A stretch of DNA of 36,031 nucleotides from a virus (Duplodnaviria; Heunggongvirae; Uroviricota; Caudoviricetes): IMG/VR virus record IMGVR_UViG_3300042940_001739; one strand, written 5' to 3'. Position 1 is the stretch's first letter, and every line of letters starts with the position of its first letter. This document shows, piece by piece, positions 7,880 through 34,813 of the stretch. The position numbers were made by a program, and so were the translations under genes. The notes beneath the pieces are model-generated. The model was not told where the DNA came from, made no database searches, and saw only the letters and a program-made list of their open reading frames with translations.

Positions 7880-10221
7880 GTAATATATTCTATTCAGAAG
7901 TAGATCCTAATTTACAAACAGAGTTAAACTATCGAGGTAACTCTGGTAAAACTCGTACTACTGAAGATATTAATTTCATGGTTAGTAAACTTGCTAATGT
8001 ACAGTTAACAGCTTATGAAGATAATAAACCAGATCCTAGTAAAATTGTAAAAGACCATGGAATATTAGGAGGACAATTAGTTCGAAGTGGTAGATATTTG
8101 CCAAGCGGATTTTTATCAAAACAAGATTATACATCAACGACAGTTGAATTTGTCGACGACAAAAATATTAATATTGTAAATGCTACCAGAGCTCTTCGAG
8201 GACAAAAATCATTAACACCTGGCCAAGCATTTTCTCAAGTAAATCATTCAATTGATGAGTCATACCGAATTGGTCCATATGTTACTAGTGTTGATATAAC
8301 AATCGGCGACCATTCAATGGGTTTATTGAATAAAGCTACAGTTAATATATCAATACCAAACCCCGGTAGAGATTTAGATGCCATGGAAGATACGTGGTTT
8401 CGCCCAGGACGTTATGTTAAGATACAAGTAGCTCAAGCTGACTCAGCAATTTTATCTAGGGATTCTGAAGGCAATGCTGGACTATTAAGTACAACTTCAA
8501 TTCCTATTAAAGACAAATTAAAGGAACTATATCCTAATTGGGATATTGATAAACTAGAAAAAGAAATTAGAAAGATGAATGAATATTCATTTGAAGGATT
8601 AATAACCTCATTTGAATTTTCATATCAATCTAACGGACAGGTTGATGCTACGCTTTCACTAACCGGTACTAGTAATGTATATACAGATGTATCTATGTGG
8701 ATGCAAACTCCAACAAAAAAAGATGATGTAGCTAAACCAAAAGTAGACACCGATCCAGTTATTGGAGTAGTGAATATACCAACACAACCAGCAGTAAGTG
8801 GTCCAACTGCAAATACAGGCTCAGTTGTAACTAAAAATGAATTTTATGATAAACTATATACACAAGTTGATTCATTGATCAATGAAGCTCGATACTTAGA
8901 TGGTTTTGAATTAGTTAGTAGTGGCATAGTTCAATTTAAAACTAGCACTTCTAATAAAACAAACACTACAGATCAATATATTTTATTTGGCGAACCGTAT
9001 CAACAAACATTATCACAAGCTGCAGCTGCTGGCGCTAGCACAAGTAAATTTAACCGTTATATAACATTAGGAGCTTTAGTCCAATTTTTAAATGATACAG
9101 TTGTTAATAAAATTACAGGATCAGCTACAAATGCTCAAGTTATATGTGATACTGAATTTAGTTGTTGCAACTATTATTCATTATTAACATCATGTATACC
9201 AGACCAAGTTTTACTATTGCCTGAAACAACTAATAGTGCGGATGGAATGAATGTATATGGAACGGAATTAACATATTACAAATATATCAATGAAAATTAT
9301 AATGCAAATTCAGAGAGGTTAGCACAGTGGCCAGGTGTCCATACAAATTCTGCTGCAGCTGACACTAATAAAATTTACGGATCTAGAATTTTCATTAATT
9401 TAGAAACAATTCAAAAGATATTAAATGGTGAAGATGGTAAGTCTGGATTAACTGCAGGCGGAACAAAAAGTTTCTCACTTAAACAGTTTATAGCAACTGT
9501 TAGTAGTAAACTAAATTATGCTACTGGTGGGTCAATTTCAATGAAATTAATCACGCATCCATTAGATGAAACTAAATTATTGCTTAACGATTCTAAATAT
9601 TTAAAAACCCCTTTGTTAGGTGATCCTGGAAAACCTGTAATTGTTACTCCGTATGAGATTCCTATGTTTGCAAATCATAAGAATGGAACAATTGTCCGCG
9701 AGTTTAAAATGTCAGCAACATTACCGGAAAATGCTAAAAATTTATCTTATGTATTAAATGAAGGTGACGAAGTAACTGAAGAGGAAATTGCACCATATAT
9801 GAACATGATGTACAATGCAAAAGATCCTGATTCAATTAATAAGGTAATGCAAAAGTATAAAGATAAACATGCAAATATTAGAACTCAACTTATTGATACA
9901 AAAAAAGCATTTGGAAATGCCCCTACGATCCCGGAGAAAAGCCAAGCTCTTTGGAAAGCATTATCTTCATATATAAAATATCCAACAGATGACATCCGCA
10001 AATCGCAACAAATGACCGCGCCAATATTTCCATTTAGTGTTGACTTTACAATCGATGGTATTAATGGGTTTAGATATGGCGATGTATTACAATTTGTTGG
10101 ATTACCAAAAAAATATCGAGAGAATACGGTATTTAGTATTATAAGTATAACACATACAATAGGAACAGACGGACAATGGACATCTGCGATTAAATGTATA
10201 ATGAGACCGAGTATAAGCTAA
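7876..10221 (+). CDS. Putative baseplate hub protein (gp27-like)
   Basis: Position after the LysM-like gene; FEGLITSFEFS and C-terminal FTIDGINGFRYGD..FSIISITHTI...W.S.I beta-rich pattern. Confidence 0.55.
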   Translation: MSNIFYSEVDPNLQTELNYRGNSGKTRTTEDINFMVSKLANVQLTAYEDNKPDPSKIVKDHGILGGQLVRSGRYLPSGFLSKQDYTSTTVEFVDDKNINIVNATRALRGQKSLTPGQAFSQVNHSIDESYRIGPYVTSVDITIGDHSMGLLNKATVNISIPNPGRDLDAMEDTWFRPGRYVKIQVAQADSAILSRDSEGNAGLLSTTSIPIKDKLKELYPNWDIDKLEKEIRKMNEYSFEGLITSFEFSYQSNGQVDATLSLTGTSNVYTDVSMWMQTPTKKDDVAKPKVDTDPVIGVVNIPTQPAVSGPTANTGSVVTKNEFYDKLYTQVDSLINEARYLDGFELVSSGIVQFKTSTSNKTNTTDQYILFGEPYQQTLSQAAAAGASTSKFNRYITLGALVQFLNDTVVNKITGSATNAQVICDTEFSCCNYYSLLTSCIPDQVLLLPETTNSADGMNVYGTELTYYKYINENYNANSERLAQWPGVHTNSAAADTNKIYGSRIFINLETIQKILNGEDGKSGLTAGGTKSFSLKQFIATVSSKLNYATGGSISMKLITHPLDETKLLLNDSKYLKTPLLGDPGKPVIVTPYEIPMFANHKNGTIVREFKMSATLPENAKNLSYVLNEGDEVTEEEIAPYMNMMYNAKDPDSINKVMQKYKDKHANIRTQLIDTKKAFGNAPTIPEKSQALWKALSSYIKYPTDDIRKSQQMTAPIFPFSVDFTIDGINGFRYGDVLQFVGLPKKYRENTVFSIISITHTIGTDGQWTSAIKCIMRPSIS

Positions 10222-13920: not shown

Positions 13921-14697
13921 ATGGCTTTAAATTTAGACGCTATCAAAGCGAAACTTAATCAGTTGAACAAAGCTGATGACAAAAAACAAAATTTGTGGAA
14001 ACCTGAAGCAGGTAAGACACGTATTAGAATTGTACCTTATGTACACCGAAAAGACAATCCATTCTTAGAATTGTATTTTCATTATGACATTGCAAAACGT
14101 TCAATGTTATCTCCAATCACATTTGGCAACGCAGATCCAATTGTTGAATTCGCAGACAAACTTAAGAAAACTGGTGACAAAGACGAGTGGTTAATGGGTC
14201 GTAAAATCGAACCTAAAATGAGAACTTATGTTCCTGTAATCGTTCGTGGCAAAGAATCAGAAGGAGTTAAGTTTTGGGGATTCGGAAAACAAATTTACAC
14301 AGAATTATTATCAATCATTTCAGATCCTGATTATGGCGACATTACAGATTTGATGAATGGTCGTGATATTGATGTTGAATTTACTCCAGCAGAAGGCGCT
14401 AACTTCCCAAAAACATCAATCCGTGTTAAACCTAACACTCAACCAGCAACCGAAGACAAATCAATTGCTGAGAAAATCATGAATCAACCAGAAATCACTG
14501 ATTTATTCCCTGAACCGACTTATGACGAATTAGAAAAAGCATTAGCTGAATGGATGAACCCAGAAACAGCAGATGCAGACGTTTCTTCATCAACACCAGA
14601 AGTTGAAACTAGCGAAACTAGTGCACCTGCAAAAGCAGCTCCTGCTGCTAAAGTAGAAGATGTAGCATCGGCATTTGACGACTTATTCAATAACTAG
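13921..14697 (+). CDS. Single-stranded DNA-binding protein (T4 gp32-like)
   Basis: WKPEAGKTRIRIVP, GVKFWGFGK, DITDLMNGRDI; acidic tail ending AFDDLFNN. Confidence 0.85.
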   Translation: MALNLDAIKAKLNQLNKADDKKQNLWKPEAGKTRIRIVPYVHRKDNPFLELYFHYDIAKRSMLSPITFGNADPIVEFADKLKKTGDKDEWLMGRKIEPKMRTYVPVIVRGKESEGVKFWGFGKQIYTELLSIISDPDYGDITDLMNGRDIDVEFTPAEGANFPKTSIRVKPNTQPATEDKSIAEKIMNQPEITDLFPEPTYDELEKALAEWMNPETADADVSSSTPEVETSETSAPAKAAPAAKVEDVASAFDDLFNN

Positions 14698-21213: not shown

Positions 21214-21921
21214 ATGACAGACAAACAAAGAAAAAATCTAGAACTAGTAAAATCTGGTTTTGCTAATGGTATTTCCACGCAATTAGCTAATAAACAAGCT
21301 ATTGACGGACCTGACGCTCGATTGACTGACGATGAGAAACAGCATATTATTAAAATGGCTGCATTCTATTACGGTGAATTTCTTAAAGCATTAGGAGTAG
21401 ATTGGGAAAAAGATCCTAATTCAGATAATACACCTAATCGTGTAGCAAAAGCATATGTTAATGATTTATGGAAAGGTCGTTATGAGCCAATGTCAGATAT
21501 TACTTCATTTCCGAGTGATGGTTATGATGGTATAGTATTTGAGGGCGGTATTCCATTAACTAGTATGTGTTCACATCATCATCAAACAATTGAAGGGTTA
21601 GTTCATATTGCATATATTCCAGCAGATAACGGAAACGTAGTTGGGTTAAGTAAATTGAATCGAGTAGTAGAACACTTTGGTAGACGAGGTGCAATACAAG
21701 AACAGTTGACAGTTGCGATTCAACACGCAGTAGATGAACTTATTACAGACAACAAAGGTGTAGCTGTAATGGTTGAAGCAACTCATAATTGTGTATCTTG
21801 TAGAGGTGTTAAGCATCGAGGCGCATCAATGAAGACCGCAAAATTATCAGGAGCATTTTTAGAAGACGGAAACGCAAGATCAGAATTTTATCAATTTGTA
21901 AAAGGTTACACTCATGGCTAA
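21214..21921 (+). CDS. folE: GTP cyclohydrolase I
   Basis: TPNRVAKAY, SMCSHH, VVGLSKLNRVV, IQEQLT, HNCVSCRGV. Confidence 0.95.
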   Translation: MTDKQRKNLELVKSGFANGISTQLANKQAIDGPDARLTDDEKQHIIKMAAFYYGEFLKALGVDWEKDPNSDNTPNRVAKAYVNDLWKGRYEPMSDITSFPSDGYDGIVFEGGIPLTSMCSHHHQTIEGLVHIAYIPADNGNVVGLSKLNRVVEHFGRRGAIQEQLTVAIQHAVDELITDNKGVAVMVEATHNCVSCRGVKHRGASMKTAKLSGAFLEDGNARSEFYQFVKGYTHG

Positions 21922-22408
21922 AACAAGATATCTATCAACGAAATTATTTGACAATTATTCAGTAGCAATTCGTCAGTGGAAAGCACAACATTCACATTGC
22001 CAATTGTTACATGGATATGCATTGAAGTTTAAAGTTTGGTTTGCATCTAATGAACCGAATATCGATGAACAATTAGATGATATGAATTGGATAGTTGATT
22101 ACGGAGGCTTCAAGACACCACCACACGGTAATGGCATCAAAGATTGGATGAATCATATGTGGGATCATACAACACTTATTCAAGCAAACGATCCATATCG
22201 AGATTTATTTGAATCGATGCAAATGGAAGGTATTTGCAAAGTTCATTTCTTAGAAAGAATGGGTGCAGAATCTAATGCACGATTAACATTTGAAAAACTT
22301 AACGAAGTAATGGCAAAGACTGATGCAGGTCGATGCAAAGTAGTTAAAGTTGAATGTTTTGAAAATGATAACAATTCATCTATATACGAAGAACAATGGG
22401 GAGAATAG
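21914..22408 (+). CDS. queD: 6-carboxytetrahydropterin synthase (QueD/PTPS family)
   Basis: RQW..HSHCQLLHGY, WIVDYG, WDHTTL, terminal VECFE; between folE and queE. Confidence 0.85.
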   Translation: MAKTRYLSTKLFDNYSVAIRQWKAQHSHCQLLHGYALKFKVWFASNEPNIDEQLDDMNWIVDYGGFKTPPHGNGIKDWMNHMWDHTTLIQANDPYRDLFESMQMEGICKVHFLERMGAESNARLTFEKLNEVMAKTDAGRCKVVKVECFENDNNSSIYEEQWGE

Positions 22409-22731
22409 TAACCACGTGGCAAGAAAACGGAATGTTGTATACATTAACAGCTAGTCCAATTAATAGTGAAAATACAACACCTAAAGCTCAACCATCGGAA
22501 ATGATATCTATATTTCAATATTTAGGTAATCGTACTCCCGATCAAGGCACTGGTGCTAAAGTATATCAACATGCAAAAAACGTTGGTGCTAAATATGAAG
22601 CAGGTGACTTAAATACTCCATCTTATCAAGGAAAGATTATGTTGTACGAACGTAGCTTCTTAGATACTTATTTTAATAACAATACAGCAACTACTTCAAT
22701 CGGTGAAGAAGATGATGACTTACCATTTTAA
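22396..22731 (+). CDS. Hypothetical protein with an SSB-like acidic C-terminal tail (EEDDDLPF)
   Basis: 111-aa ORF between queD and queE. Confidence 0.65.
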   Translation: MGRIVTTWQENGMLYTLTASPINSENTTPKAQPSEMISIFQYLGNRTPDQGTGAKVYQHAKNVGAKYEAGDLNTPSYQGKIMLYERSFLDTYFNNNTATTSIGEEDDDLPF

Positions 22732-22732
22732 T

Positions 22733-23506
22733 ATGAATAAACGAATTACAGATTACAATAAAACACTTCCTATCATTGAATTGTATAGATGTGTTCAAAG
22801 TGAAGGAAGTCGATTTGGTCGACCTACTATCGCAGTAAGAACTACGGGTTGCACACATAGATGTTACTTTGGTGAAGGCGGTTGGTGTGATAGTTGGTAT
22901 ACAAGTATACACCCAGAAAAAGGTCAATTTACATTTAATGATATCATCAAGATATATGACGAAAATCCTCATATCAAAGAGATGATGCTAACGGGAGGTT
23001 CCCCGACAATGCACCCAGCATTGGTAAACGAACTTACACATTTCGCACATGAAAGAGACATTCTTATTACTATTGAAACTGAAGGCTCGCATTTTATTGA
23101 GACCGATTATCCTATTGGTCTTATATCTCTTAGCCCTAAGTTTTCAAATAGTGTTCCCGTATTGGGAGTGGCCACACCACAAGGTGATATTACGGACGAT
23201 AAAATGGTTCGACAACATAACAAGTTTAGAATGAATTTAACTGCGATGCACGCAATGATAACAACGCATTTAGATTATCATTTTAAACCAGTATGGGATG
23301 GTACTGCAGAGAATTTAAAAGAAATTGAAGAAATCCGAGAGTTCTTAGAAATTCCAAAAGATAAAACATACATAATGCCGGCAGGCGACACACGAGAAGA
23401 ATTAATAAAAATGTATCCAATTGTATTTGATATGTGTGCTGAAAAAGGTTATAACATGACCGGAAGAGACCATATCATTGCATTTGACACTAAACGAGGA
23501 GTATAA
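22733..23506 (+). CDS. queE: 7-carboxy-7-deazaguanine synthase (radical SAM)
   Basis: VQSEG..FGRPTIAVRTTGC...C.......CDS, LTGGSP, TIETEG, SLSPK; start moved to ATG 22733. Confidence 0.92.
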   Translation: MNKRITDYNKTLPIIELYRCVQSEGSRFGRPTIAVRTTGCTHRCYFGEGGWCDSWYTSIHPEKGQFTFNDIIKIYDENPHIKEMMLTGGSPTMHPALVNELTHFAHERDILITIETEGSHFIETDYPIGLISLSPKFSNSVPVLGVATPQGDITDDKMVRQHNKFRMNLTAMHAMITTHLDYHFKPVWDGTAENLKEIEEIREFLEIPKDKTYIMPAGDTREELIKMYPIVFDMCAEKGYNMTGRDHIIAFDTKRGV

Positions 23507-24415: not shown

Positions 24416-24660
24416 TAGAAATATTAGGTTGGTTAAGCACTGCATTGGTTTTATTAGGTTATATTACCAATGCACGTGGCCTAACAAAATGGGCTATGAT
24501 AACCTGGATCTTAGGTGATTGTGGTTGGATTATGTATGATGTTTATATACAGAATATAAGTCATATGGCTCTTAGTTTAGTTATTATAGTAATAAATTTA
24601 ACAGGTATTTATCGGTTATGGAAATTATCATCAAAGAAGAAGACATTGCTAAAAGGGTAA
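24412..24660 (+). CDS. Small three-helix membrane protein (PnuC/SemiSWEET-like topology)
   Basis: Three hydrophobic segments, LGW...GY..N...W..GD..W..Y pattern. Confidence 0.55.
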   Translation: MIEILGWLSTALVLLGYITNARGLTKWAMITWILGDCGWIMYDVYIQNISHMALSLVIIVINLTGIYRLWKLSSKKKTLLKG

Positions 24661-25127
24661 AAGAATTAGCACAAGCAATATCAACAGATCACGTTTTTAA
24701 TAGTGATAATGTATTGCCACCCGTAATGATATGTGTATTGAATGGATCATTTCATTTCTTTTCAGATCTAACAAGAATGATGTCAATTGACTCAGAAGTT
24801 GATTTTATTAGATTGAAATCATATGAAGGTCAAGACAATTCACAAGGCGTATCAGTTATTAAAGATTTAGAATTAGATTTAAAAGGCAAACGAGTTTATA
24901 TTGTTGACGACATTTTAGATACTGGTGCTACAATGATTGAAGCATTGCACATGGTTAATTCTAGAATGGCACAAGAAGTAAAAATAGTAACATTGTTAAA
25001 ACGCAAAGATGGCCCAATGACTCCTGACTTTTATGGATTTGAAATAGGAGATGAATGGGTTCTAGGCTACGGTTTAGATGACTATGGATTAAAAAGACAC
25101 GAACGAAATATATACAAAATAAATTAA
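24618..25127 (+). CDS. hpt: Hypoxanthine/guanine phosphoribosyltransferase
   Basis: CVLNGSFHFFSDL, KSY, PRPP loop VYIVDDILDTGAT, VLGYGLD. Confidence 0.9.
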   Translation: MEIIIKEEDIAKRVKELAQAISTDHVFNSDNVLPPVMICVLNGSFHFFSDLTRMMSIDSEVDFIRLKSYEGQDNSQGVSVIKDLELDLKGKRVYIVDDILDTGATMIEALHMVNSRMAQEVKIVTLLKRKDGPMTPDFYGFEIGDEWVLGYGLDDYGLKRHERNIYKIN

Positions 25128-27640
25128 TGGCATATCAAGCAATAGGTTACGACAAAAAGAATGGCATCATGCACATATGGGATGATGAGTTAGGACATAA
25201 CAAGTTCCCATTTCAACCATATGGATATTTGCCAGACGCAAATGGTCAATATCAATCCTTAGACGGAACTAGATTATCAAAAGTTCCTGGCAATCATCGA
25301 GATAATTCTAAATCATTCGAATCTGACTTAAATGAAGAAGTTAGAACTTTGATTGATTTATATTATGAATCAGATGAGCCATCAAAAGGACATAGAGATT
25401 TCTTTTTTGATATTGAAACAGCAAAAGACGAAAATGGTTATAGTACTACAGAAGATGTTCGAACAGTAATTACTTCTATCGCATATTATGACAAAGCAGG
25501 GAAAGACCGTCGTGTATTAATTCTAGACGAATTAGGCCGCATAAAAGAGCAGGAAATACAAGGAGACGGCTATGTATTAGAGATATTTCGTGACGAAAGA
25601 GACCTTTTAACACGATTTATCAATAAATTTGCAGAAATACAACCTACAGTAATTACGGGTTGGAACACTGATGGATATGATGTTCCTTATTTAATGGGAC
25701 GTTGTAAAAAGGTTTTAGGAGCACAATCAATTAAGAAGTTCTCACCTGCCGGCATTGTTGAACAGACAAAATCAGGTAAATGGAAGATCTTCGGAGTATC
25801 TAGTTTAGATTATATTAAATTGTATAAAAACTTTACGTATACTGAACTACCTAATTACCGATTAGACACTGTTGCTAAAAAAGAATTAGGTCGAGGAAAA
25901 GTAGAATATGACGGTGATTTAGACACATTGTTTACACAAGATATTCACAAGTTTGCTTATTACAATATGACTGACGTTGATTTGGTTTATGATATGGATG
26001 AAAAACTTCAATTATTAAACTTAGCACGTACAATATGTCATAAAGGACACGTTCCATATGAAGATGTGTATTATGCATCTAAATATCTAGATGGAGCAGC
26101 AATTGTAGATTTGAAACGAAATGGATTTGTTGCGCCTAACAAGCAATTTAGATTTATTGAAGAAGAAACAATGGCAGATGCTTTAGCAGGAGCATATGTA
26201 ATGGCACCAGTACCTGGATTGTATAAATGGATCTATGACTTGGACTTAACTTCGCTTTATCCGAGTATCATCATGACAGCAAATATTTCTCCAGAAACTA
26301 AAGTAGCTGTTATTAAAAATTGGAATCAAGAATGTTTGTTAAATAAGACACCTCAGCAAGTAGAATTCACAGATGGTAGTTATGCACATGACGTTAAACA
26401 ATGGTTGATTGATAACAATTATTCAGTTGCAAGTAACGGAGCTGTGTATAGAAATGATCAACGAGGTTTCCTTCCAACGATTCTAGAAAAATGGTTTGAC
26501 GAACGTGTTATTTACAAAGATAAACGTGATACATATGAAGTAGGAACAGAAGATTATAAATTCTATGATGCGATGCAGTTAACACAAAAAGTATTGCTTA
26601 ACTCATTCTACGGAGTATTAGGATTAAAAACATTCAGATTCTATGATTTAGATAATGCAGGAGCAATTACAGCAGTTGGTCAAAGCATTATTAAATTCTC
26701 AGCAAAAGTTATTAATAACTATTACAAGAAAGAATTAGGAACTGATCACTTTATTAATGCATCAGGTGGCAAAGCAGAGTTTGCATTTTATACAGATACA
26801 GATTCAACGTTTTGTAGTAGTGAGCCATTAATTAAACATCGTTTCCCAGGATGTGATACTGAAGATGAACAGTTCATGATTGAACAAACAAATGCAATTG
26901 CATCTGAGATTCAAAAGACTGTTAATACGATGTATAATCAATATGCAAAAGTATTCCACAATACAGAAAAGCACCGTTTCCAAATTAAGCAGGAGTATAT
27001 TGCTAAATCTGGTTTATGGATTGCAAAGAAACGCTATGCACAGTGGGTTATTTTCAAAGAAGGTAAACCTACGGATAAATTAGATGTAAAAGGATTAGAT
27101 GTTGTAAGATCTAGTTTCCCGGAAGATTTCAAAAAAATCATGAAAGAAACATTGTGGTTCATTCTTAAAGGTAAAGACAAACAAACTACATCAACATTGA
27201 TACATGATTTCAAAAGTAACATCAAGAAGTCAGAAGTATTAAATGTAATGAAGAATTCAAGTGTTAAAGAATTGTCTAAATACATTCGAGGAAGAAAACC
27301 ATTTACAGGATTTATCAAGGGTACAACAGCACACGCAAAAGCAGCAATCAATTTCAATGATATGCTTTCAACATTATCAACAGACATCTTACCAATTAAA
27401 GATGGCGAAAAAGTTAAATGGGGTTACATGTTAAATAATCCATATGGGTTTGAAACATTAGCATTGCGAGGATATCAAGATCCACCCGAGATAGTTGCAT
27501 TCGCAAATCAATACATTGACCACAATAAAATGTTTACATCAGACCTAAGCAACAAGTTCAATGACTTTTATGCAGCAATGGGTTGGGGCGCATTACCAGA
27601 AAATAATAATGCAAATAAATTCTTTTCATTTGGAAAATAA
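25127..27640 (+). CDS. Family B DNA polymerase (T4 gp43-like)
   Basis: ExoI FDIET, ExoII GWNTDGYD, ExoIII YNMTDV, DLTSLYPSI, KVLLNSFYG, YTDTDS, KKRYA. Confidence 0.97.
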   Translation: MAYQAIGYDKKNGIMHIWDDELGHNKFPFQPYGYLPDANGQYQSLDGTRLSKVPGNHRDNSKSFESDLNEEVRTLIDLYYESDEPSKGHRDFFFDIETAKDENGYSTTEDVRTVITSIAYYDKAGKDRRVLILDELGRIKEQEIQGDGYVLEIFRDERDLLTRFINKFAEIQPTVITGWNTDGYDVPYLMGRCKKVLGAQSIKKFSPAGIVEQTKSGKWKIFGVSSLDYIKLYKNFTYTELPNYRLDTVAKKELGRGKVEYDGDLDTLFTQDIHKFAYYNMTDVDLVYDMDEKLQLLNLARTICHKGHVPYEDVYYASKYLDGAAIVDLKRNGFVAPNKQFRFIEEETMADALAGAYVMAPVPGLYKWIYDLDLTSLYPSIIMTANISPETKVAVIKNWNQECLLNKTPQQVEFTDGSYAHDVKQWLIDNNYSVASNGAVYRNDQRGFLPTILEKWFDERVIYKDKRDTYEVGTEDYKFYDAMQLTQKVLLNSFYGVLGLKTFRFYDLDNAGAITAVGQSIIKFSAKVINNYYKKELGTDHFINASGGKAEFAFYTDTDSTFCSSEPLIKHRFPGCDTEDEQFMIEQTNAIASEIQKTVNTMYNQYAKVFHNTEKHRFQIKQEYIAKSGLWIAKKRYAQWVIFKEGKPTDKLDVKGLDVVRSSFPEDFKKIMKETLWFILKGKDKQTTSTLIHDFKSNIKKSEVLNVMKNSSVKELSKYIRGRKPFTGFIKGTTAHAKAAINFNDMLSTLSTDILPIKDGEKVKWGYMLNNPYGFETLALRGYQDPPEIVAFANQYIDHNKMFTSDLSNKFNDFYAAMGWGALPENNNANKFFSFGK

Positions 27641-27658
27641 GAATAAATTCATTATATT
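27630..27658 (+). promoter_or_regulatory. Sigma70-like promoter TTGGAA-N17-TATATT
   Basis: Recurrent class; 5 nt before ATG 27664. Confidence 0.6.
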
Positions 27659-27663
27659 ATAGT

Positions 27664-28089
27664 ATGATTGGTTATAGAACACATTGGTATGGCAAAGAAG
27701 TTGAAGGTCGTTATAGCGATATTGAAACTTTATTCGTTGCAGATACAAAAGCATTTGAGCAAGTTAAAAACGCAGGTGTAGCACACATATATTTATGCTC
27801 ACCGGCAACAGAGCAATTAGTTAAATCTGAATCTTGGGATATTATTTTCCATATGATGACAGACACAACATTTGTTACAATTGAAGTAACACCTGGTATG
27901 TTAGAAAAGATACCTCCGATGATTAGAATCCGAGCACATATCTTGTTAATGTTAACGTGTTCAGATGCAGGCTTATTGAAAAAGACTGATAGCATCAAAG
28001 TTGTATATGCAGATTATTCGTTATTTTGTACGACCGTGCATAATATGCAACAAGTAACTCCAGATGATTATAAATTCGATAGACAATGA
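27664..28089 (+). CDS. Hypothetical protein leading the modification sub-operon
   Basis: 141-aa ORF, ATGA-coupled to the next gene. Confidence 0.7.
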   Translation: MIGYRTHWYGKEVEGRYSDIETLFVADTKAFEQVKNAGVAHIYLCSPATEQLVKSESWDIIFHMMTDTTFVTIEVTPGMLEKIPPMIRIRAHILLMLTCSDAGLLKKTDSIKVVYADYSLFCTTVHNMQQVTPDDYKFDRQ

Positions 28090-28502
28090 GAATTGGCGTA
28101 GTAGCAGGCAACTTTGATGTAATACATCCCGGTTATGTTAAGATGTTTAATGAGTGCGAAGCTTCATGTGATCAATTGATAATTTTATTGCATGATGATC
28201 CTTCAGTTGAACGACCTAACAAATTAAAGCCGGTACTTTCAATATATGAACGACGTGAAATGTTAACTAGTTTAGTTCGAGGTTGTATTATTTTAACATA
28301 TAATACCGAAGCTGAATTAGAATTTTTATTGAAATCAATTGAACCTGATATAAGATTTTTAGGAACCGATTATCAGTTAGAAGAATTCACCGGTAAACAT
28401 TTGAATATTCCAATTCATTATATATCTAGAACACATGGTTGGTCAACAACAAAATACAAACAATTAATAGCAGATGAAGTACAGCGTAGTAGTAACATTT
28501 AG
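28086..28502 (+). CDS. Cytidylyltransferase (TagD/GCT-like, HxGH superfamily)
   Basis: AGNFDVIHPGY, KP....ER..ML, GTDY, RTHGWSTT. Confidence 0.85.
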   Translation: MRIGVVAGNFDVIHPGYVKMFNECEASCDQLIILLHDDPSVERPNKLKPVLSIYERREMLTSLVRGCIILTYNTEAELEFLLKSIEPDIRFLGTDYQLEEFTGKHLNIPIHYISRTHGWSTTKYKQLIADEVQRSSNI

Positions 28503-28827
28503 TATCGAAGGATTCCATAATTGGCCTTCTGCTAAAGACATATTTCCAGAAGTAGCATTCTTATCAGATAGACACCGTCATATGTTCGGGTTTCGTTGTT
28601 ATGCAAAAGTAACACATACAGATCGAGACAAAGAGTTTATTTTGTTGAATCGAGAAATAAAAAGAAACCTTCAATTGAATTTTGAAAAAGAGTTCGACAA
28701 CGTATTAGAGTTTGGCTCGATGTCGTGTGAAGCAATTGGAGAATATTTGTTAGATCAATTTCCAGAATTATATAAAGTAGAAGTTTGGGAAGATTGGGAA
28801 AATGGTTGTGTTGTTGAGCGAGATTAG
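28474..28827 (+). CDS. Second QueD-like T-fold protein, DpdL-like (putative CDG decarboxylase)
   Basis: EGFHNWP, LSDRHRHMF (LxxxHRHxF), DRDKEF, SCEAI, VEVWEDWENG; I recall this signature for DpdL but have not verified it here. Confidence 0.7.
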   Translation: MKYSVVVTFSIEGFHNWPSAKDIFPEVAFLSDRHRHMFGFRCYAKVTHTDRDKEFILLNREIKRNLQLNFEKEFDNVLEFGSMSCEAIGEYLLDQFPELYKVEVWEDWENGCVVERD

Positions 28828-28858
28828 GGAAGACTCGGGAAGATTTTGAACGTAAACT

Positions 28859-28872
28859 ATATTTATATTAAA
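28859..28872 (+). promoter_or_regulatory. Putative late promoter ATATTTATATTAAA abutting the HNH start codon
   Basis: Exact 14-mer; its last A is the A of ATG 28872. Confidence 0.6.
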
Positions 28873-29456
28873 TGAAGCATTTAGACACATATAGTTTACG
28901 TTTATGTCCTCAGTGTAATACTAAAATAATGTATACTGGTAAAAATCATATAAAAACATCTAGAGAAGCTGAAAAAAAATCTAGAATATGTAAAAGTTGC
29001 GCATCTACAGGACAAAATAATCCAATGTATGGTAAGCCGGCTTGGAGTAAAGGAAAAAAACGACCAGAACATAGTAAATGGTTGAAAGAAAATAATCCAA
29101 TGTTTGATTTACATTATCGAGATAAATATTTTTTAGCACAATTTGGAGTGACTGCAGAACAATGGGCTGAAACAAAAGATGATAGATATTTGTATATATT
29201 AGAAGTTATACGAATTACAAAAAAACAACCATTGCATATATTGGAAAATTTTGATAAAATTGCACATATAAAGACTGGGGGTTATGCTATTGATCATATT
29301 TACCCTAAATCTAAAGGATTTGATAATAAAATTCCACCGGAACTAATTGGCAATATAAAAAATTTACAAATTATTCCGGGGATTGAAAACTCAAAAAAAC
29401 GAGAAAAAATTATTTACATTCCCGAACATATACAAATATATTTGGATAGTATATAA
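28872..29456 (+). mobile_element. Free-standing HNH homing endonuclease with Zn ribbon and NUMOD3-like motif
   Basis: CPQC...CKSC, GQNNPMYGKPAWSKG, IDHIYP....F....NIKNLQII...EN.KK; lower GC than flanking genes. Confidence 0.8.
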
Positions 29457-29470
29457 TAATTTTATATAAT
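29442..29470 (+). promoter_or_regulatory. Sigma70-like promoter TTGGAT-N17-TATAAT
   Basis: -35 box lies inside the last HNH codons; 5 nt before ATG 29476. Confidence 0.7.
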
Positions 29471-29475
29471 AAGTT

Positions 29476-30498
29476 ATGAAAGTATTTTTAGTAGATTTAG
29501 AATCAATTCCAACACGTTATACTTGTGAGTGGAAGACACATGTTCCTAAGTTATTAGCATTTCACGGGTTCGATGTAGAAGTTATTGAAGGAGACTTAAA
29601 TATACCAAATGCAACGACTGATGGTGCCTTTTTAAACTTTGGCGGAACTAACATGTATAAAGCAACGCAGCTTCATAAATTAGCTGAGATGTTTACATTA
29701 GGTAAAATTAATGCAGGAGATCATATTGTATTTACAGATGCATGGCATCCAGCAATCATCAATGTAAAATACATGAGTGAGCTTTTGGATATTCCGGTTA
29801 TAACGCACGGACTTTGGCACGCGGGTTCATATGATCCAAATGATTTTTTAGGTCGTCTCGTAGGAGATAAACCATGGATTAGACACGCTGAGCAGTCTTT
29901 TATTGAAGCATTTGATTTCAATTGGTTAGCAACTGATGCACATTTTGAATTGATTAGCAAAACTTATGCTAATTCATTTTTCAAGACAGGTTGGCCTATG
30001 GAATATACAAAAGGTATGATTGAGCCAGTTAACTTTACTCAAAAGAAAAACATTATTGTGTTTCCGCATCGAGTAGCTATTGAGAAGCGTGTCAATTTGT
30101 TTGAACAATTGTCAATGCGTCCAGAATTAGCTCATTATGAATTTCGTATTCCGATGTTAGAAGGATTAACAAAACAACAATATCATAAATTGTTACAAGC
30201 TTCAAAATATGCAGTTTCATTTGCAGAACAAGAAACATTAGGAATATCAATGTATGAGGCAGCTTGTGCAGGAGCAATGCCAATTGTACCAGACAGATTA
30301 TCTTATATAGAAATGTATTCAAAACATTTCAAACATGATGACACTCTTGATGATGTAGTAGATATTATTTTATCAACAGAACAACATGATATGACACTAG
30401 AAATTGCCGTACAAGCACAAAGCTTACATGACAAATTCTTTTCAGCAACGAACTTAATTAATAAACTAAAGGAATATAATGAACAAAGAACAGCCTAA
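29476..30498 (+). CDS. GT-B fold glycosyltransferase (GT4-like)
   Basis: IVFPHRVAIEKR, QETLGISMYEAACAGAMPIVP (E-x7-E motif). Confidence 0.8.
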   Translation: MKVFLVDLESIPTRYTCEWKTHVPKLLAFHGFDVEVIEGDLNIPNATTDGAFLNFGGTNMYKATQLHKLAEMFTLGKINAGDHIVFTDAWHPAIINVKYMSELLDIPVITHGLWHAGSYDPNDFLGRLVGDKPWIRHAEQSFIEAFDFNWLATDAHFELISKTYANSFFKTGWPMEYTKGMIEPVNFTQKKNIIVFPHRVAIEKRVNLFEQLSMRPELAHYEFRIPMLEGLTKQQYHKLLQASKYAVSFAEQETLGISMYEAACAGAMPIVPDRLSYIEMYSKHFKHDDTLDDVVDIILSTEQHDMTLEIAVQAQSLHDKFFSATNLINKLKEYNEQRTA

Positions 30499-31747
30499 AA
30501 GATTTATATACTTCCCTTCCTTATCGGCGGGTAGTATGGTATCGGCATTCAAGAAGGACATGAAATTTACATCAGGTGATCCTGTAAAATTTTATGACTC
30601 ACGATACCCAGACAAATGGCGTCATCCATATTTCCTAATCACAGCAGGACACCATTACAAGAAAATGGACTTCCGCGATCAATTAGGATTAGAAAAGGAT
30701 GTATTGGTATTTGGTGACTCAGGAGGTTATCAGATTGCAACCGGAGCGCTACCATATAGCAACGAATTACGTGAAAAGATCTTTCATTGGTTAGAAGCTA
30801 ATAGTGATGTAGCAGCTAACTTAGATATTCCGCCTAAAACGAAATATAGAAATAAATTTGCAGAATGTGCAGATATTAGTTTTGACAACTTTGCTTGGTT
30901 TGAAAAACATCAAAGTGGTAAGACAAAATTCTTAAACATGTTGCAAGGATCAAATTCTCAAGAATACACTTGGTGGTATCATAAATTTAAGCATTTTGAT
31001 TTCCAAGGATGGGCGATTGGAGGTCCACAAAAATTAGTTGACTTTATGTTTGCATTATCATTAATGCTTAAAGAAAGAGAATTTGAAAAGACTCGTAATG
31101 AGTATCTTCACTTGTTAGGAATTAGTAAAATTTCCGATTTCTTTATCTTAGCAACAATGCAAAAGTTAATGAACAAACATTATGGCGGTAGAATTACAGT
31201 AACAACAGATTCGTCATCGCCAGGACAGTATCCAGTATTCGGAACATATCTTCATTCAACTAATTTCAAGACACAAACATTCTCTGAATTGTATTTTCCA
31301 AAGAATGCAGAATACCGTCGCAAGTCACATATTAAACAAGGCAAAACGGGTGATGTAACCGGAATTGATTTGACACAAACAGTTCCTTGTCAATTAGGTT
31401 GTCCAGCTTGTTCTGACTTCACATATGAATACTTAGGAGGTAAAACAGATGCAGGTCTAGATAGATATTCTCAAGAAGCTATGCCTAGAATGGTTGTTCA
31501 TAACACTCATTTATATGTAAATGCTGCAGAAGAAATTAATCAGCTAGTTGATAGTCACGTTGAATTATTAGAGACAGTTGTCCCTAAAGATTTATATGAT
31601 GTGATTTTATCATTGCACGAAATGTTTGCAGACCCAGACAATGCACCACAGATATATGAAAAGTATATCAAAACATATAAAAAATTCGGAGGCGATTCAA
31701 TATCAACAACGGATGCAGAAAATTTCAATAAATTCTTTAAATTTTAA
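30479..31747 (+). CDS. dpdA: TGT-fold deazapurine DNA transglycosylase (DpdA-like)
   Basis: GDSGGYQ, NLDIP, MLQG, GWAIGG, HLLG, TDSSS, Zn site CQLGCPAC...HN; folE/queD/queE in the same region. Confidence 0.85.
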   Translation: MNKEQPKRFIYFPSLSAGSMVSAFKKDMKFTSGDPVKFYDSRYPDKWRHPYFLITAGHHYKKMDFRDQLGLEKDVLVFGDSGGYQIATGALPYSNELREKIFHWLEANSDVAANLDIPPKTKYRNKFAECADISFDNFAWFEKHQSGKTKFLNMLQGSNSQEYTWWYHKFKHFDFQGWAIGGPQKLVDFMFALSLMLKEREFEKTRNEYLHLLGISKISDFFILATMQKLMNKHYGGRITVTTDSSSPGQYPVFGTYLHSTNFKTQTFSELYFPKNAEYRRKSHIKQGKTGDVTGIDLTQTVPCQLGCPACSDFTYEYLGGKTDAGLDRYSQEAMPRMVVHNTHLYVNAAEEINQLVDSHVELLETVVPKDLYDVILSLHEMFADPDNAPQIYEKYIKTYKKFGGDSISTTDAENFNKFFKF

Positions 31748-31757
31748 AAAATAAAAC

Positions 31758-32465
31758 ATGGAAAAAAGCAAATTACAATCATTCATCAACCGCTACTATT
31801 TAGCTGGTAATTGTGAAGCAGTTATTTTAAAAGAAGATACATCAGGAATCAATTGTGAATTGATTGATATGGATCAAACCGTTGTAGGTAAAATTCAATG
31901 GAAGACTACACCTTTCATGAAAGGCTCATTAGGAATCAATCATACCGGTGCATTAACAAAAATGCTTTCTGCATTAGGTGAAAATATCAATATTGATGTT
32001 AAAGATGCAGCAGGTAAGAATTATGCAATGAAGATTACCGAAGGTAACACGCAGTTGACTTTCATGTTAGCAGATACCACAGTAATTCCAGCAGTGCCAA
32101 GCATTAATGCAGAGCCTGACTATGTAGTTACTATCCCGGTTAATGAGGAATTCATTACTAAATTTATTAAAGCAAAGAATGCATTACCGGATGCTAAAAA
32201 CTTTGCAATACAAGTACAAAATGGCAAAATTAAATTCATTATTAATTACTCAACAGTTAACGCTGATAATATTTCTTTTGAAATGGACGGAGGAAGTGAA
32301 GCAATCGAGCCAATTTGTTTTTCAGCAGATAAACTTAAAGAAATTTTGGTTGCGAATAGAGGTGACAGTGGGCACTTACATATATCAACGGAAGGTTTGG
32401 CTCGAATTAACTTTACAGGTGCTGACTTCGACTCCACTTATTGGTTAGTTCAATTACAAAACTAA
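31758..32465 (+). CDS. Sliding clamp (T4 gp45-like)
   Basis: 235 aa with a two-domain alpha/beta pattern ending STYWLV; close to clamp loader genes. Confidence 0.75.
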   Translation: MEKSKLQSFINRYYLAGNCEAVILKEDTSGINCELIDMDQTVVGKIQWKTTPFMKGSLGINHTGALTKMLSALGENINIDVKDAAGKNYAMKITEGNTQLTFMLADTTVIPAVPSINAEPDYVVTIPVNEEFITKFIKAKNALPDAKNFAIQVQNGKIKFIINYSTVNADNISFEMDGGSEAIEPICFSADKLKEILVANRGDSGHLHISTEGLARINFTGADFDSTYWLVQLQN

Positions 32466-33211: not shown

Positions 33212-34147
33212 ATGTTTAATAATATTAATGAAATAGAAAATAGTTTATGGACCGAATCCTTCCGCCCAGATACATTAGAAGGATATATTGGAAATGAGCA
33301 TATCATTGAAAAGGTTAAAATTTTCATTGAAAATGGTGATGTTCCACATTTATTGTTCTATGGCTCAGCAGGAACTGGTAAAACAACCTTAGCAAAAATT
33401 ATTGCAGGCTCGGTAGATGCAGATATCATGTATATTAACGCATCAGATGAAAACTCAGTAGATGCGGTTCGAGATAAGATTAAGCGTTATGCATCAACGG
33501 TAGGGTTTAAACGTTGGAAAATCATTATCTTGGATGAGGCAGACTATTTGACACCAAATGCTCAAGCAGCACTTCGTAATTTAATGGAAACATATAGTAA
33601 AACAACACGTTTTATTTTAACATGTAACTATGTTGAAAAGATTATTGATCCAATTCAATCACGTTGTCAGACATTTGCAATTACACCTCCAAATAAATCA
33701 GATGTAGCTAAAAGATTAGTTGCAGTATTAAATGAAAAAGGAGTTGAGTATGACATTAAAGACATTGCAGCAATTATCAATTCATCATATCCAGACATTC
33801 GTCGTGCAATTAATGCAGCACAAGCATCAGTTGTAGGAAATCGATTGCAATTAGATAAAGCAAGTTCCCTTCAAGCAAATTATATGACTGAAGTTTTGGA
33901 ATTGTTGAAAAATGCAAAAGATAAAAAGGCAGCTTTCACTAAAATTCGACAAGTTATTGCAGACAGCAAAGTTAGAGACTTTACTCCAATGTATACATTC
34001 TTGTATGATAGTTTAGATGAATTTGCAGTAGGACATATTGGCGGAGCAATTTTAATTATTGCAGAAGCACAATTTAAAGATGCGTCAGTTGTTGATAAAG
34101 AAATCAACATCATGGCAATGTTTGTAAATTTATTAAATGAAATCTAA
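33212..34147 (+). CDS. Clamp loader AAA+ subunit (T4 gp44 / RFC-like)
   Basis: LWTESFRP, PHLLFYGSAGTGKTT, INASD, ILDEAD, QAALR, SRC. Confidence 0.95.
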   Translation: MFNNINEIENSLWTESFRPDTLEGYIGNEHIIEKVKIFIENGDVPHLLFYGSAGTGKTTLAKIIAGSVDADIMYINASDENSVDAVRDKIKRYASTVGFKRWKIIILDEADYLTPNAQAALRNLMETYSKTTRFILTCNYVEKIIDPIQSRCQTFAITPPNKSDVAKRLVAVLNEKGVEYDIKDIAAIINSSYPDIRRAINAAQASVVGNRLQLDKASSLQANYMTEVLELLKNAKDKKAAFTKIRQVIADSKVRDFTPMYTFLYDSLDEFAVGHIGGAILIIAEAQFKDASVVDKEINIMAMFVNLLNEI

Positions 34148-34360: not shown

Positions 34361-34813
34361 ATGGCAGACGAAAAAAAGGGTGCAACAATCTTTGATTTTA
34401 TTGATGGGGTAACTAGCAAAAAGAAAGAATGGAATAAATGGTCTGAAACTGATCAGAGTAAATTTTCACCATTCATTGTAAATAGATGGTTATCAATGCG
34501 TCAAGACTTAACAGAGCTTATCAACGAGTTACAGACATATACTATCGGATTGTTACGACCAAAAGAAACTTACCGTCTATATCACGAATTCCTGCCTGCT
34601 TCAAAGGGGTTTGCAAAATACGTGAAGGGTAAAAAAGACGACAAGTATTCAGACAAATTAATTGCACAGGTAGCGGAACATTACAAAGTTAGCAAAACAG
34701 AAGCTTCTGATTATATTGAGTTGTTAGATCAAACGACTTGCACCCGTCTGCTAAATTTATATGGTTATACCGAAGGCGAAATCAAAACAATGATTAAAGG
34801 AGTTAAAAAATGA
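34361..34813 (+). CDS. Clamp loader small subunit (T4 gp62-like)
   Basis: IFDFI..., FSPFIVNRWLSM, FAKYVK, VAEHYKVS..EA..Y pattern; near the gp44-like gene. Confidence 0.75.
   Translation: MADEKKGATIFDFIDGVTSKKKEWNKWSETDQSKFSPFIVNRWLSMRQDLTELINELQTYTIGLLRPKETYRLYHEFLPASKGFAKYVKGKKDDKYSDKLIAQVAEHYKVSKTEASDYIELLDQTTCTRLLNLYGYTEGEIKTMIKGVKK

Follow-up and report, generated by a model that had tools for sequence, protein, structure and literature searches.

The window analysed here is a stretch of 36,031 nucleotides (nt) from IMG/VR virus record IMGVR_UViG_3300042940_001739 (36 kb out of a 53.5-kb phage contig), in which a T4-type replication module is present. It encodes a family-B replicative DNA polymerase (PolB), a DNA transglycosylase of the DpdA type and a sliding clamp, whose fold and identity are described below. 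DpdA ends in a short hydrophobic tail like that of PolB. The two tails are shared, selected and co-varying across lineages, and the same arrangement is found in cultured T4-like phages. Taken together, sequence comparison, structure models and analogy with phage T4 indicate that DpdA is probably a client of the sliding clamp, in the manner of T4 gp55 and gp33, with the polymerase-like tail as the docking element. The idea goes back to an original prediction, made from the DNA letters alone, that the two enzymes share a C-terminal NKFFxF peptide by which base exchange is tethered to the clamp.

The polymerase, the transglycosylase and the clamp

PolB (837 amino acids (aa), 25127..27640, +) is a replicative polymerase of the T4/RB69 gp43 type, as assigned by Pfam DNA_pol_B and exo1 and by phrog_262; its closest PDB matches are T4 gp43 (E 2e-69) and RB69 gp43. 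The C-terminus reads ...PENNNANKFFSFGK (...NANKFFSFGK). The alignment with T4 gp43 ends at query residue 806 of 837 and at T4 residue 871 of 898, so the PolB tail (residues 807-837, ending in PENNNANKFFSFGK, 27545..27637, +) corresponds in position to the tail by which gp43 binds gp45, and is a putative clamp-binding epitope. Its core, NKFFSF, lies at 27614-27631, where the original prediction had placed the end NANKFFSFGK*; the likening of PolB to the clamp-docking gp43 of T4 and RB69 also holds, since the protein is a gp43 homologue with a tail at the same place. The tail consensus in relatives is NNxxx[KR]FF[STN][FY]G(K) (80 IMG/VR loci).

The 422-aa protein encoded at 30479..31747 (+) is, on the evidence of its family profile, its motifs and an AlphaFold2 model, a DpdA-type enzyme of DNA base exchange with a TGT fold. 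The protein itself has no Pfam match and no PHROG match; PF01702 is carried by relatives at 72-75% identity. A profile of 74 DpdA family sequences aligns over the DSGGyQ, LDIP and Zn motifs with arcTGT (1iq8, E 5e-6) as well as with TGTs of bacteria. The AlphaFold2 model (pLDDT 92.4, pTM 0.91) has the (beta/alpha)8 barrel of the TGTs, and its Foldseek matches include TGTs of archaeal, bacterial and human origin (probability 1.0, E about 1e-9). Residues D80, S81, G82, G83, Q85, D116, P118 and D244 are invariant in the 74 sequences. The three aspartates lie in the motifs DSGG (D80), LDIPP (D116) and TDSSSP (D244), and their catalytic roles are assigned by analogy. A zinc site, C304-x3-C308-x2-C311 ... 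H341 (PCQLGCPAC at 303-311 and H341-N342; consensus LPCxxxCPxC...HN), aligns to the Zn motif of arcTGT. Genes for 7-deazaguanine synthesis lie close by in the same virus, and DpdA relatives also adjoin QueC, QueF and QueD. With both the TGT fold and the TGT motifs found, the TGT-like identity first proposed for DpdA stands.

The C-terminus of DpdA reads ...GGDSISTTDAENFNKFFKF (in a longer reading ...KKFGGDSISTTDAENFNKFFKF). The putative clamp-binding epitope is AENFNKFFKF, residues 413-422 (31715..31744, +), singled out by conservation, selection, enrichment and co-variation with PolB, and anchored by F416, F419, F420 and F422. NKFFKF is encoded at 31727-31744, in agreement with the earlier reading of the end as ENFNKFFKF* there. 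The linker GGDSISTTD (residues 404-412, 31688..31714, +) joins the TGT domain to the tail motif. In the AlphaFold2 model the pLDDT is above 90 in the barrel, drops towards the end to 63, then 51 (blocks of 10 residues each) and then 43 in the final block, and is below 50 at residues 407-412. A short helix of low confidence is drawn at residues 413-419. The tail is without confident packing onto the barrel; packing into the TGT barrel, which had been named beforehand as evidence that would speak against clamp docking, is thus absent from the model. The GGDSISTTDAE linker originally described as flexible does have a low pLDDT, yet the amino acids of the segment KKFGGxSISTTD are invariant within the clade despite many synonymous changes, and are unconserved only between distant homologues.

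The dpdA stop codon (31745-31747) and the next ATG (31758) are separated by 10 nt, as had been stated. The gene that begins there (31758..32465, +) encodes a 235-aa sliding clamp with the two-domain PCNA/gp45 fold and a highly divergent sequence. It was recognised from an AlphaFold2 model with Foldseek, which gave at least 480 matches at E<=1e-3; all matches listed for the model are clamps (PCNA, 9-1-1 and T4 gp45 in 3u61, probability 1.0), and the fold search therefore agrees with the clamp assignment of the original prediction. Confidence in the model is restricted to its C-terminal half. No match to the 235-aa protein was found in Pfam, PHROG (including family 223) or NCBIfam, or by phmmer or profile searches of the PDB. 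After the clamp gene follow a dUTPase, a gp44-like AAA+ large subunit of the clamp loader (33212..34147, +; phrog_168, E 6e-83; Pfam AAA and DNA_pol3_delta2) and a gp62-like small subunit (34361..34813, +; phrog_225, E 2e-19). In 143 of the 166 short-form DpdA loci, the clamp gene begins no more than 700 nt downstream of the dpdA gene.

Conservation and specificity of the DpdA tail

DpdA has 790 relatives among 1.84 billion representatives searched exhaustively with phmmer. Among 120 close homologues and in 80 IMG/VR loci the tail consensus is F-N-x-[FY]-F-x-[FQ]. The tail is encoded by 54 distinct DNA versions with abundant synonymous change, while residues -7, -4, -3 and -1 are invariant or nearly so, which indicates purifying selection on the tail. 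Among the phmmer relatives the 20 residues preceding the DpdA end are unconserved, and the linker varies between lineages.

Enrichment was measured with 116 diverse short-form DpdA representatives (50% clustering) and 1652 other open reading frames (ORFs) on the same loci. The motif [FLMY]F occurs within the last six residues of 81 of the 116 (about 70%), as against 41 of the 1652 (2.5%); the ends seen include LNEFFNF, SDNDFF, SINDLF, NSLDLF, KSLFEF and others. Conservation of the tail in DpdA homologues, on which the original prediction had been made to depend, is therefore found. When the ends of all ORFs of at least 80 aa at a locus (median 25 ORFs) were compared with the PolB tail, that of DpdA matched best in 89 of 104 short-form loci. 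PolB and DpdA are the only ORFs ending in this way on the 53.5-kb contig, and a KFFxF ending occurs in 2 of 221 crude genes of a complete 159.6-kb relative (G001), again PolB and DpdA only.

Two smaller proteins of G001 may be further clamp clients, judging from their ends: a 134-aa protein (C1:146852-147256, -) ends ..TAKTFSKLFS and a 91-aa protein (C1:83452-83727, -) ends ..ESTLTKLF; neither has a PHROG match. For comparison with a late-transcription-factor tail, a gp55 homologue was sought in the genomes G000, G001 and G002 by phmmer with T4 gp55 and with phrog_234, and none was found.

Co-variation of the two tails

For diverse family members, the tails of DpdA and PolB were read on the same contig. 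Matched pairs, with DpdA given before PolB, include KKINNLFKF and KKINSLFKF (L086), VVKMDALFD and MIKMDGLFW (L199), MIETFFDFN and KIESFFEF (L106), AITDLFEF and TIDTLFDF (L295), NKKSLFNF and KIKTLFNF (L296), and NNFSSLFEGG and NTFNKLFEF (L146). PolB tails of the FF type pair with FF, YF or HF tails of DpdA in 8 of 8 cases and those of the LF type with LF tails in 4 of 4, so that 12 of 12 are concordant. When the pairings were shuffled, the mean ungapped BLOSUM62 score fell from 19.9 to 14.8 +/- 1.1 for 20 lineages (p=4e-5) and from 24.2 to 17.1 +/- 1.5 for 13 short-form lineages (p=1e-4), and permutation inside the FF class and inside the LF class gave p about 0.04 each; these p-values overstate independence because the lineages are related. 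The matching of non-anchor residues inside each class is hard to explain from the sequences without a shared constraint. The co-variation of the two tails that the original prediction had called for is thus seen in the permutations over 20 lineages.

Cultured phages have the same arrangement. In Acidovorax phage ACP17 DpdA ends ..TTLDELFE* (ASD50403) and PolB ..PSLDDLFE* (ASD50396); in Xanthomonas phage X1 the DpdA-like protein ends ..QQSLEELFG* and PolB ..SSLESLFG*; in Synechococcus phage BUCT-ZZ01 the ends are ..PASLDSFFD* and ..KSTLDDFFS*. All three pairs match, and the three DpdA tails fit the T4 pattern [ST]L[DE]x[LF]F. ACP17 additionally encodes a gp45-family clamp (phrog_223, E 1e-60) and DpdL, and its DpdA is treated as such in the literature (PMC10516641). 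By their sequences, the tails of these phages tie the drifted NKFFxF motif of the window to the experimentally defined epitope of T4.

A tail of this kind was also seen on another enzyme. In L086 (IMGVR_UViG_3300025009_000162), two genes upstream of dpdA, lies the gene for a LicD-family protein (P0396; PF04991, 230 aa, 8115-8807), whose end, ..EKINNFFKF, resembles the PolB and DpdA tails there. Its gene cluster contains an NTP-transferase/aminotransferase fusion, two oxidoreductases and a methyltransferase. The sole detectable relative of the protein (53% identity) ends ..NEISEFFNI, and neither P0324 nor P0396 was found in IMG/VR. To judge from these ends, further DNA-decorating enzymes may use the same dock, and the LicD-family protein may be a second clamp-docked enzyme of DNA hypermodification.

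Exceptions

Besides the relatedness of the lineages, several observations weigh against clamp docking by the tail. A longer DpdA subfamily (>=470 aa, 95 loci, including PA5oct) has mostly acidic LxELE ends, though its PolB ends TFxxLFxF. The DpdA-like proteins of two cultured phages differ from their own polymerases: that of Vibrio phage nt-1 (ORF390) ends ..AEYPDFKS* and does not match PolB (..ITLESFFG*), and that of Pseudomonas phage pf16 ends ..VTLDLMCA* and matches PolB (..VSLEDFFS*) only weakly. In L297 (ENA ERZ28614906 scaffold_280) the phage polymerase is a split Pol III alpha, accompanied by an AAA+ loader and a candidate clamp of 246 aa; a DpdA relative there ends ..KELLDTLFE, but the C-terminus of Pol III alpha (..GGIYRYEDF) is unlike it. 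The DpdA3 candidate of Cellulophaga phage phi19:2 (259 aa, assigned by gene order) is without a tail. Modification of the phiST type is reported to replace all G (Cui et al., PMC10516641), and phi19:2 is of the same species as phiST; the tail is therefore not required for DNA modification as such, nor for high substitution. To these points are added the strong divergence of the clamp, its lack of a match to any sequence family and the low confidence of the N-terminal half of its model.

In the longer subfamily the clamp gene lies 2.2-2.9 kb upstream of dpdA, not directly downstream. These enzymes (about 480-545 aa in L145, L153, L209, L220 and L222; in PA5oct, MK797984 222985-224607) end ..DQLEELEQTV or ..EKLTELEQGLDN, and the acidic Leu-rich tail could represent another kind of docking peptide. 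In one locus of the subfamily an ORF of 194 aa has a PolB-like tail; it was considered and set aside, as it does not form a recurrent family.

The DpdA of the window does not belong to DpdA3: its family profile (A2) finds nothing in Campylobacter phage CP220, whose PolB ends ..ETLEEW. A tblastn search with P0002 gave no match in Cbastvirus or Campylobacter phages. In Vibrio phage GR7B (MT366760, GR7B_00174) and in the Lauda group of P. putida phages (PP496443, Lauda_00102) the TGT-like proteins carry long Lys/Arg-rich tails, by sequence a third type of C-terminal extension among such phage enzymes. From the exceptions it follows that the polymerase-like tail belongs to one large DpdA lineage in T4-like phages and not to DpdA in general.

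The 7-deazaguanine pathway and neighbouring genes

Upstream of PolB, PHROG matches identified FolE (21214-21921, +; phrog_2197), QueD (21914-22408, +; phrog_2389) and QueE (22703-23506, +; phrog_2076), which are predicted to carry out the synthesis of 7-carboxy-7-deazaguanine (CDG). QueC gave no match in the contig nor in two complete relatives, whereas control genomes gave matches. A DpdL-like T-fold protein of 117 aa (28474..28827, +), a predicted CDG decarboxylase, is 43% identical (E 2e-26) to gp040 of Cellulophaga phage phi19:2. Its sequence LSDRHRHMF fits LxxxHRHxF, the signature given for DpdL, the proposed CDG decarboxylase (PMC10516641). With FolE, QueD, QueE and a DpdL-like gene present and QueC absent, the inserted base is likely to be 7-deazaguanine or CDG (dDG or dCDG is predicted).

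Directly before dpdA lies a gene for a GT-B-like protein of 340 aa (29476..30498, +; weak match to Glycos_transf_1), the 3' end of which overlaps the dpdA start by 20 nt. A homologue keeps this position in relatives, and Pfam Glycos_transf_1 is recorded for L295 and L296. In L080 the gene in the corresponding position (8788-10002) encodes a product with 22% identity to P0004. The DpdA of L080 is 74% identical to that of the window, and its PolB and clamp are 92-93% identical; the divergence of DpdA relative to PolB and clamp, together with the gene in the GT position, points to a mosaic modification cassette.

An HGPRTase-like gene (24618-25127; TIGR01203, E 5.5e-42, just below the cut-off) ends at the PolB start codon. 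Its product could salvage guanine freed by base exchange, or could make a 7-deazaguanine nucleotide. Between queD and queE a 111-aa ORF (22396-22731, no PHROG match) ends ..EEDDDLPF, like the C-terminal peptide of bacterial single-stranded DNA-binding protein (SSB). The gp32-type SSB (13921-14697) has the acidic-aromatic end ..ASAFDDLFNN, and this tail is retained in G001. An HNH-type homing-endonuclease-like gene (28872-29456) lies between the DpdL-like and GT-like genes; a 65-nt stretch in its region is 85% identical to a homing endonuclease gene of Kosakonia phage 305.

Alternative explanations

Instead of the clamp, the common target of the tails of PolB, DpdA and the LicD-family protein might be a different component of the replisome, for example the helicase, the gp32-type SSB or an unknown hub. 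In this phage group the clamp is indeed too divergent for a pocket to be mapped, and the SSB and other proteins likewise carry short C-terminal peptides. Another partner is nevertheless considered unlikely, because the PolB tail occupies the place of the T4/RB69 gp43 tail, which binds gp45, because the canonical epitope [ST]L[DE]x[LF]F and a true gp45-family clamp occur together in cultured relatives, and because dpdA adjoins the clamp gene. The tail might instead serve DpdA itself, for instance by mediating dimerisation, by covering the active site as a lid or by binding DNA, with the likeness to PolB being compositional or convergent in AT-rich genomes. Such a role would be in keeping with the abundance of N, K and F in the genomes concerned, with the strongly conserved clade-specific linker, which hints at more than a passive tether, and with the short helix drawn at residues 413-419. 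It appears quite unlikely, however, in view of the non-anchor residues that match the cognate PolB lineage by lineage, the background frequency of 2.5%, the low pLDDT and unpacked state of the tail, and the occurrence of the same tail on the unrelated LicD enzyme.

The likeness of the tails could also have arisen in the DNA, where one gene end was copied to another by gene conversion or module shuffling, or could reflect a regulatory DNA element at gene ends, with no function for the protein. The two tails of the window are identical over the 12-nt word AATAAATTCTTT, AATAAATTC occurs 6 times where 1.6 copies are expected, and the dpdA region is mosaic (in L080 DpdA is 74% identical, PolB 92%). 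The 12-mer, on the other hand, is not enriched (4 matches with at most one mismatch, 2.1 expected), and the copies of AATAAATTC lie mostly on the other strand or elsewhere, for which reason a regulatory DNA motif was rejected as the cause. The amino acids are retained through synonymous changes, and as protein sequences the tails match both between lineages with 25-45% identity and in cultured phages of higher GC content. An origin in the DNA alone is accordingly regarded as extremely improbable. Finally, modification could precede replication: the HGPRT-like enzyme would make a 7-deazaguanine nucleotide, PolB would incorporate it, and clamp-bound DpdA would proof-read, top up or compete with PolB as a regulator. 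Very little probability is given to such a route. The HGPRTase-like gene (TIGR01203, E 5.5e-42) ending at the PolB start codon speaks for it, but in the published view DpdA inserts 7-deazaguanines after replication in every phage examined (PMC10516641), a salvage role for HGPRT, with guanine from base exchange as its substrate, is equally possible, and the tail shared with DpdA would be left unexplained.

Proposed role and significance

In the proposed docking, DpdA has three parts: the globular barrel with the catalytic site, a short linker without structure, and the hydrophobic peptide F-N-K-F-F-K-F at the C-terminus. DpdA probably inserts the 7-deazaguanine produced by FolE, QueD, QueE and DpdL. 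Its tail would plug into the peptide-binding site of the trimeric gp45/PCNA-like clamp from the next gene. A trimeric clamp would offer three such sites, and DpdA could take one beside the polymerase or bind clamps left on finished DNA. As a tool-belt client it would travel on loaded clamps, scan the new duplex and exchange G. Physical binding to the clamp, the timing at the fork and an effect on the substitution level are what we infer from the tails. A wider reading, offered tentatively, is that the clamp serves as a tool-belt for DNA hypermodification in many T4-like phages: DpdA, joined in some lineages by other decorating enzymes (a LicD-family transferase, for example), would dock on it through polymerase-like C-terminal epitopes and act on the DNA as it emerges from the polymerase.

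DNA modifications with 7-deazaguanines shield phages from restriction and other defences. Clamp docking, with processive, replication-coupled scanning, is a candidate answer to the question of how a post-replicative exchanger replaces much of the guanine of a genome of about 160 kb per infection cycle, and would add a new class of clients of viral sliding clamps; if true, the tool-belt reading would explain near-complete guanine replacement by such an enzyme. The dpdA and dpdL genes of ACP17 gave no dDG in E. coli, and other factors are perhaps needed (Cui et al., PMC10516641); a need for the phage clamp and loader, which are missing in E. coli, would fit that result. A sequence rule is also offered, namely that a tail like that of the cognate polymerase predicts phage enzymes working on the clamp. 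The cultured phages ACP17, X1 and BUCT-ZZ01 make the feature directly testable.

A full-text search of the searchable literature found no description of DpdA or 7-deazaguanine coupled to a sliding clamp, PCNA or the replisome, in line with the original prediction, which knew of none. The T4 clamp-epitope system and base exchange by DpdA are already known; the new element is the polymerase-like putative clamp epitope recognised in the sequence of DpdA.

Comparison with known systems

The closest known system is that of phage T4, in which gp43 ends ..KASLDFLFG* and gp55 ends ..SPSLDFLYEAND* (..SLDFLYEAND). The C-termini of gp43, gp55 and gp33 resemble one another and can stand in for each other as gp45 epitopes; the linkers that carry them are unstructured and variable, and that of gp55 is divergent and probably unstructured (PMC2988020). 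A hydrophobic peptide at the extreme C-terminus, on a variable unstructured linker, is thus common to polymerase and non-polymerase clients of the clamp. The DpdA tail has the same properties, being an extreme C-terminal hydrophobic peptide on an unstructured and variable linker and resembling the tail of the cognate polymerase. The systems differ in that the client here is a DNA base-exchange enzyme and not a polymerase or transcription factor, the epitope in the window has drifted to xNKFFxF, and the clamp of the window is without detectable sequence similarity to gp45.

In eukaryotes and archaea, PIP-box clients such as DNMT1, UNG2 and FEN1 modify or repair newly made DNA at the fork, to which a short motif recruits them by way of PCNA. 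They share with the proteins of the window a short h-x-x-aromatic-aromatic motif, F416-x-x-F419-F420 in DpdA and [AVM]-x-x-F-F in PolB. Of the canonical PIP box, Qxx[LIM]xx[FY][FY], the hydrophobic position 4 and the aromatic pair 7-8 are present in DpdA (F-x-x-[FY]-F) and in PolB; the Gln of position 1 is not, being A or V in DpdA and N in PolB. DpdA differs further in that its motif is strictly C-terminal, its origin viral and its chemistry that of transglycosylation.

With the phage DpdA families described so far (bDpdA and DpdA1-4; PMC10516641) the enzyme of the window shares the TGT fold, the catalytic Asp, the Zn site and the company of FolE, QueD, QueE and in part DpdL. It differs from them in the link to the clamp, which that paper does not describe. 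A phage DNA-modifying enzyme that sits on the sliding clamp and acts along with replication has been proposed before, for T4 alpha-glucosyltransferase and gp45 (according to the citation as ref. 20 in bioRxiv 10.64898/2025.12.06.692756); that 2025 preprint contradicts the coupling, with no interaction in vitro or in vivo. Unlike the alpha- and beta-glucosyltransferases of T4, which are without a gp43-like tail, the DpdA described here carries a recognisable putative epitope that co-varies with that of its polymerase.

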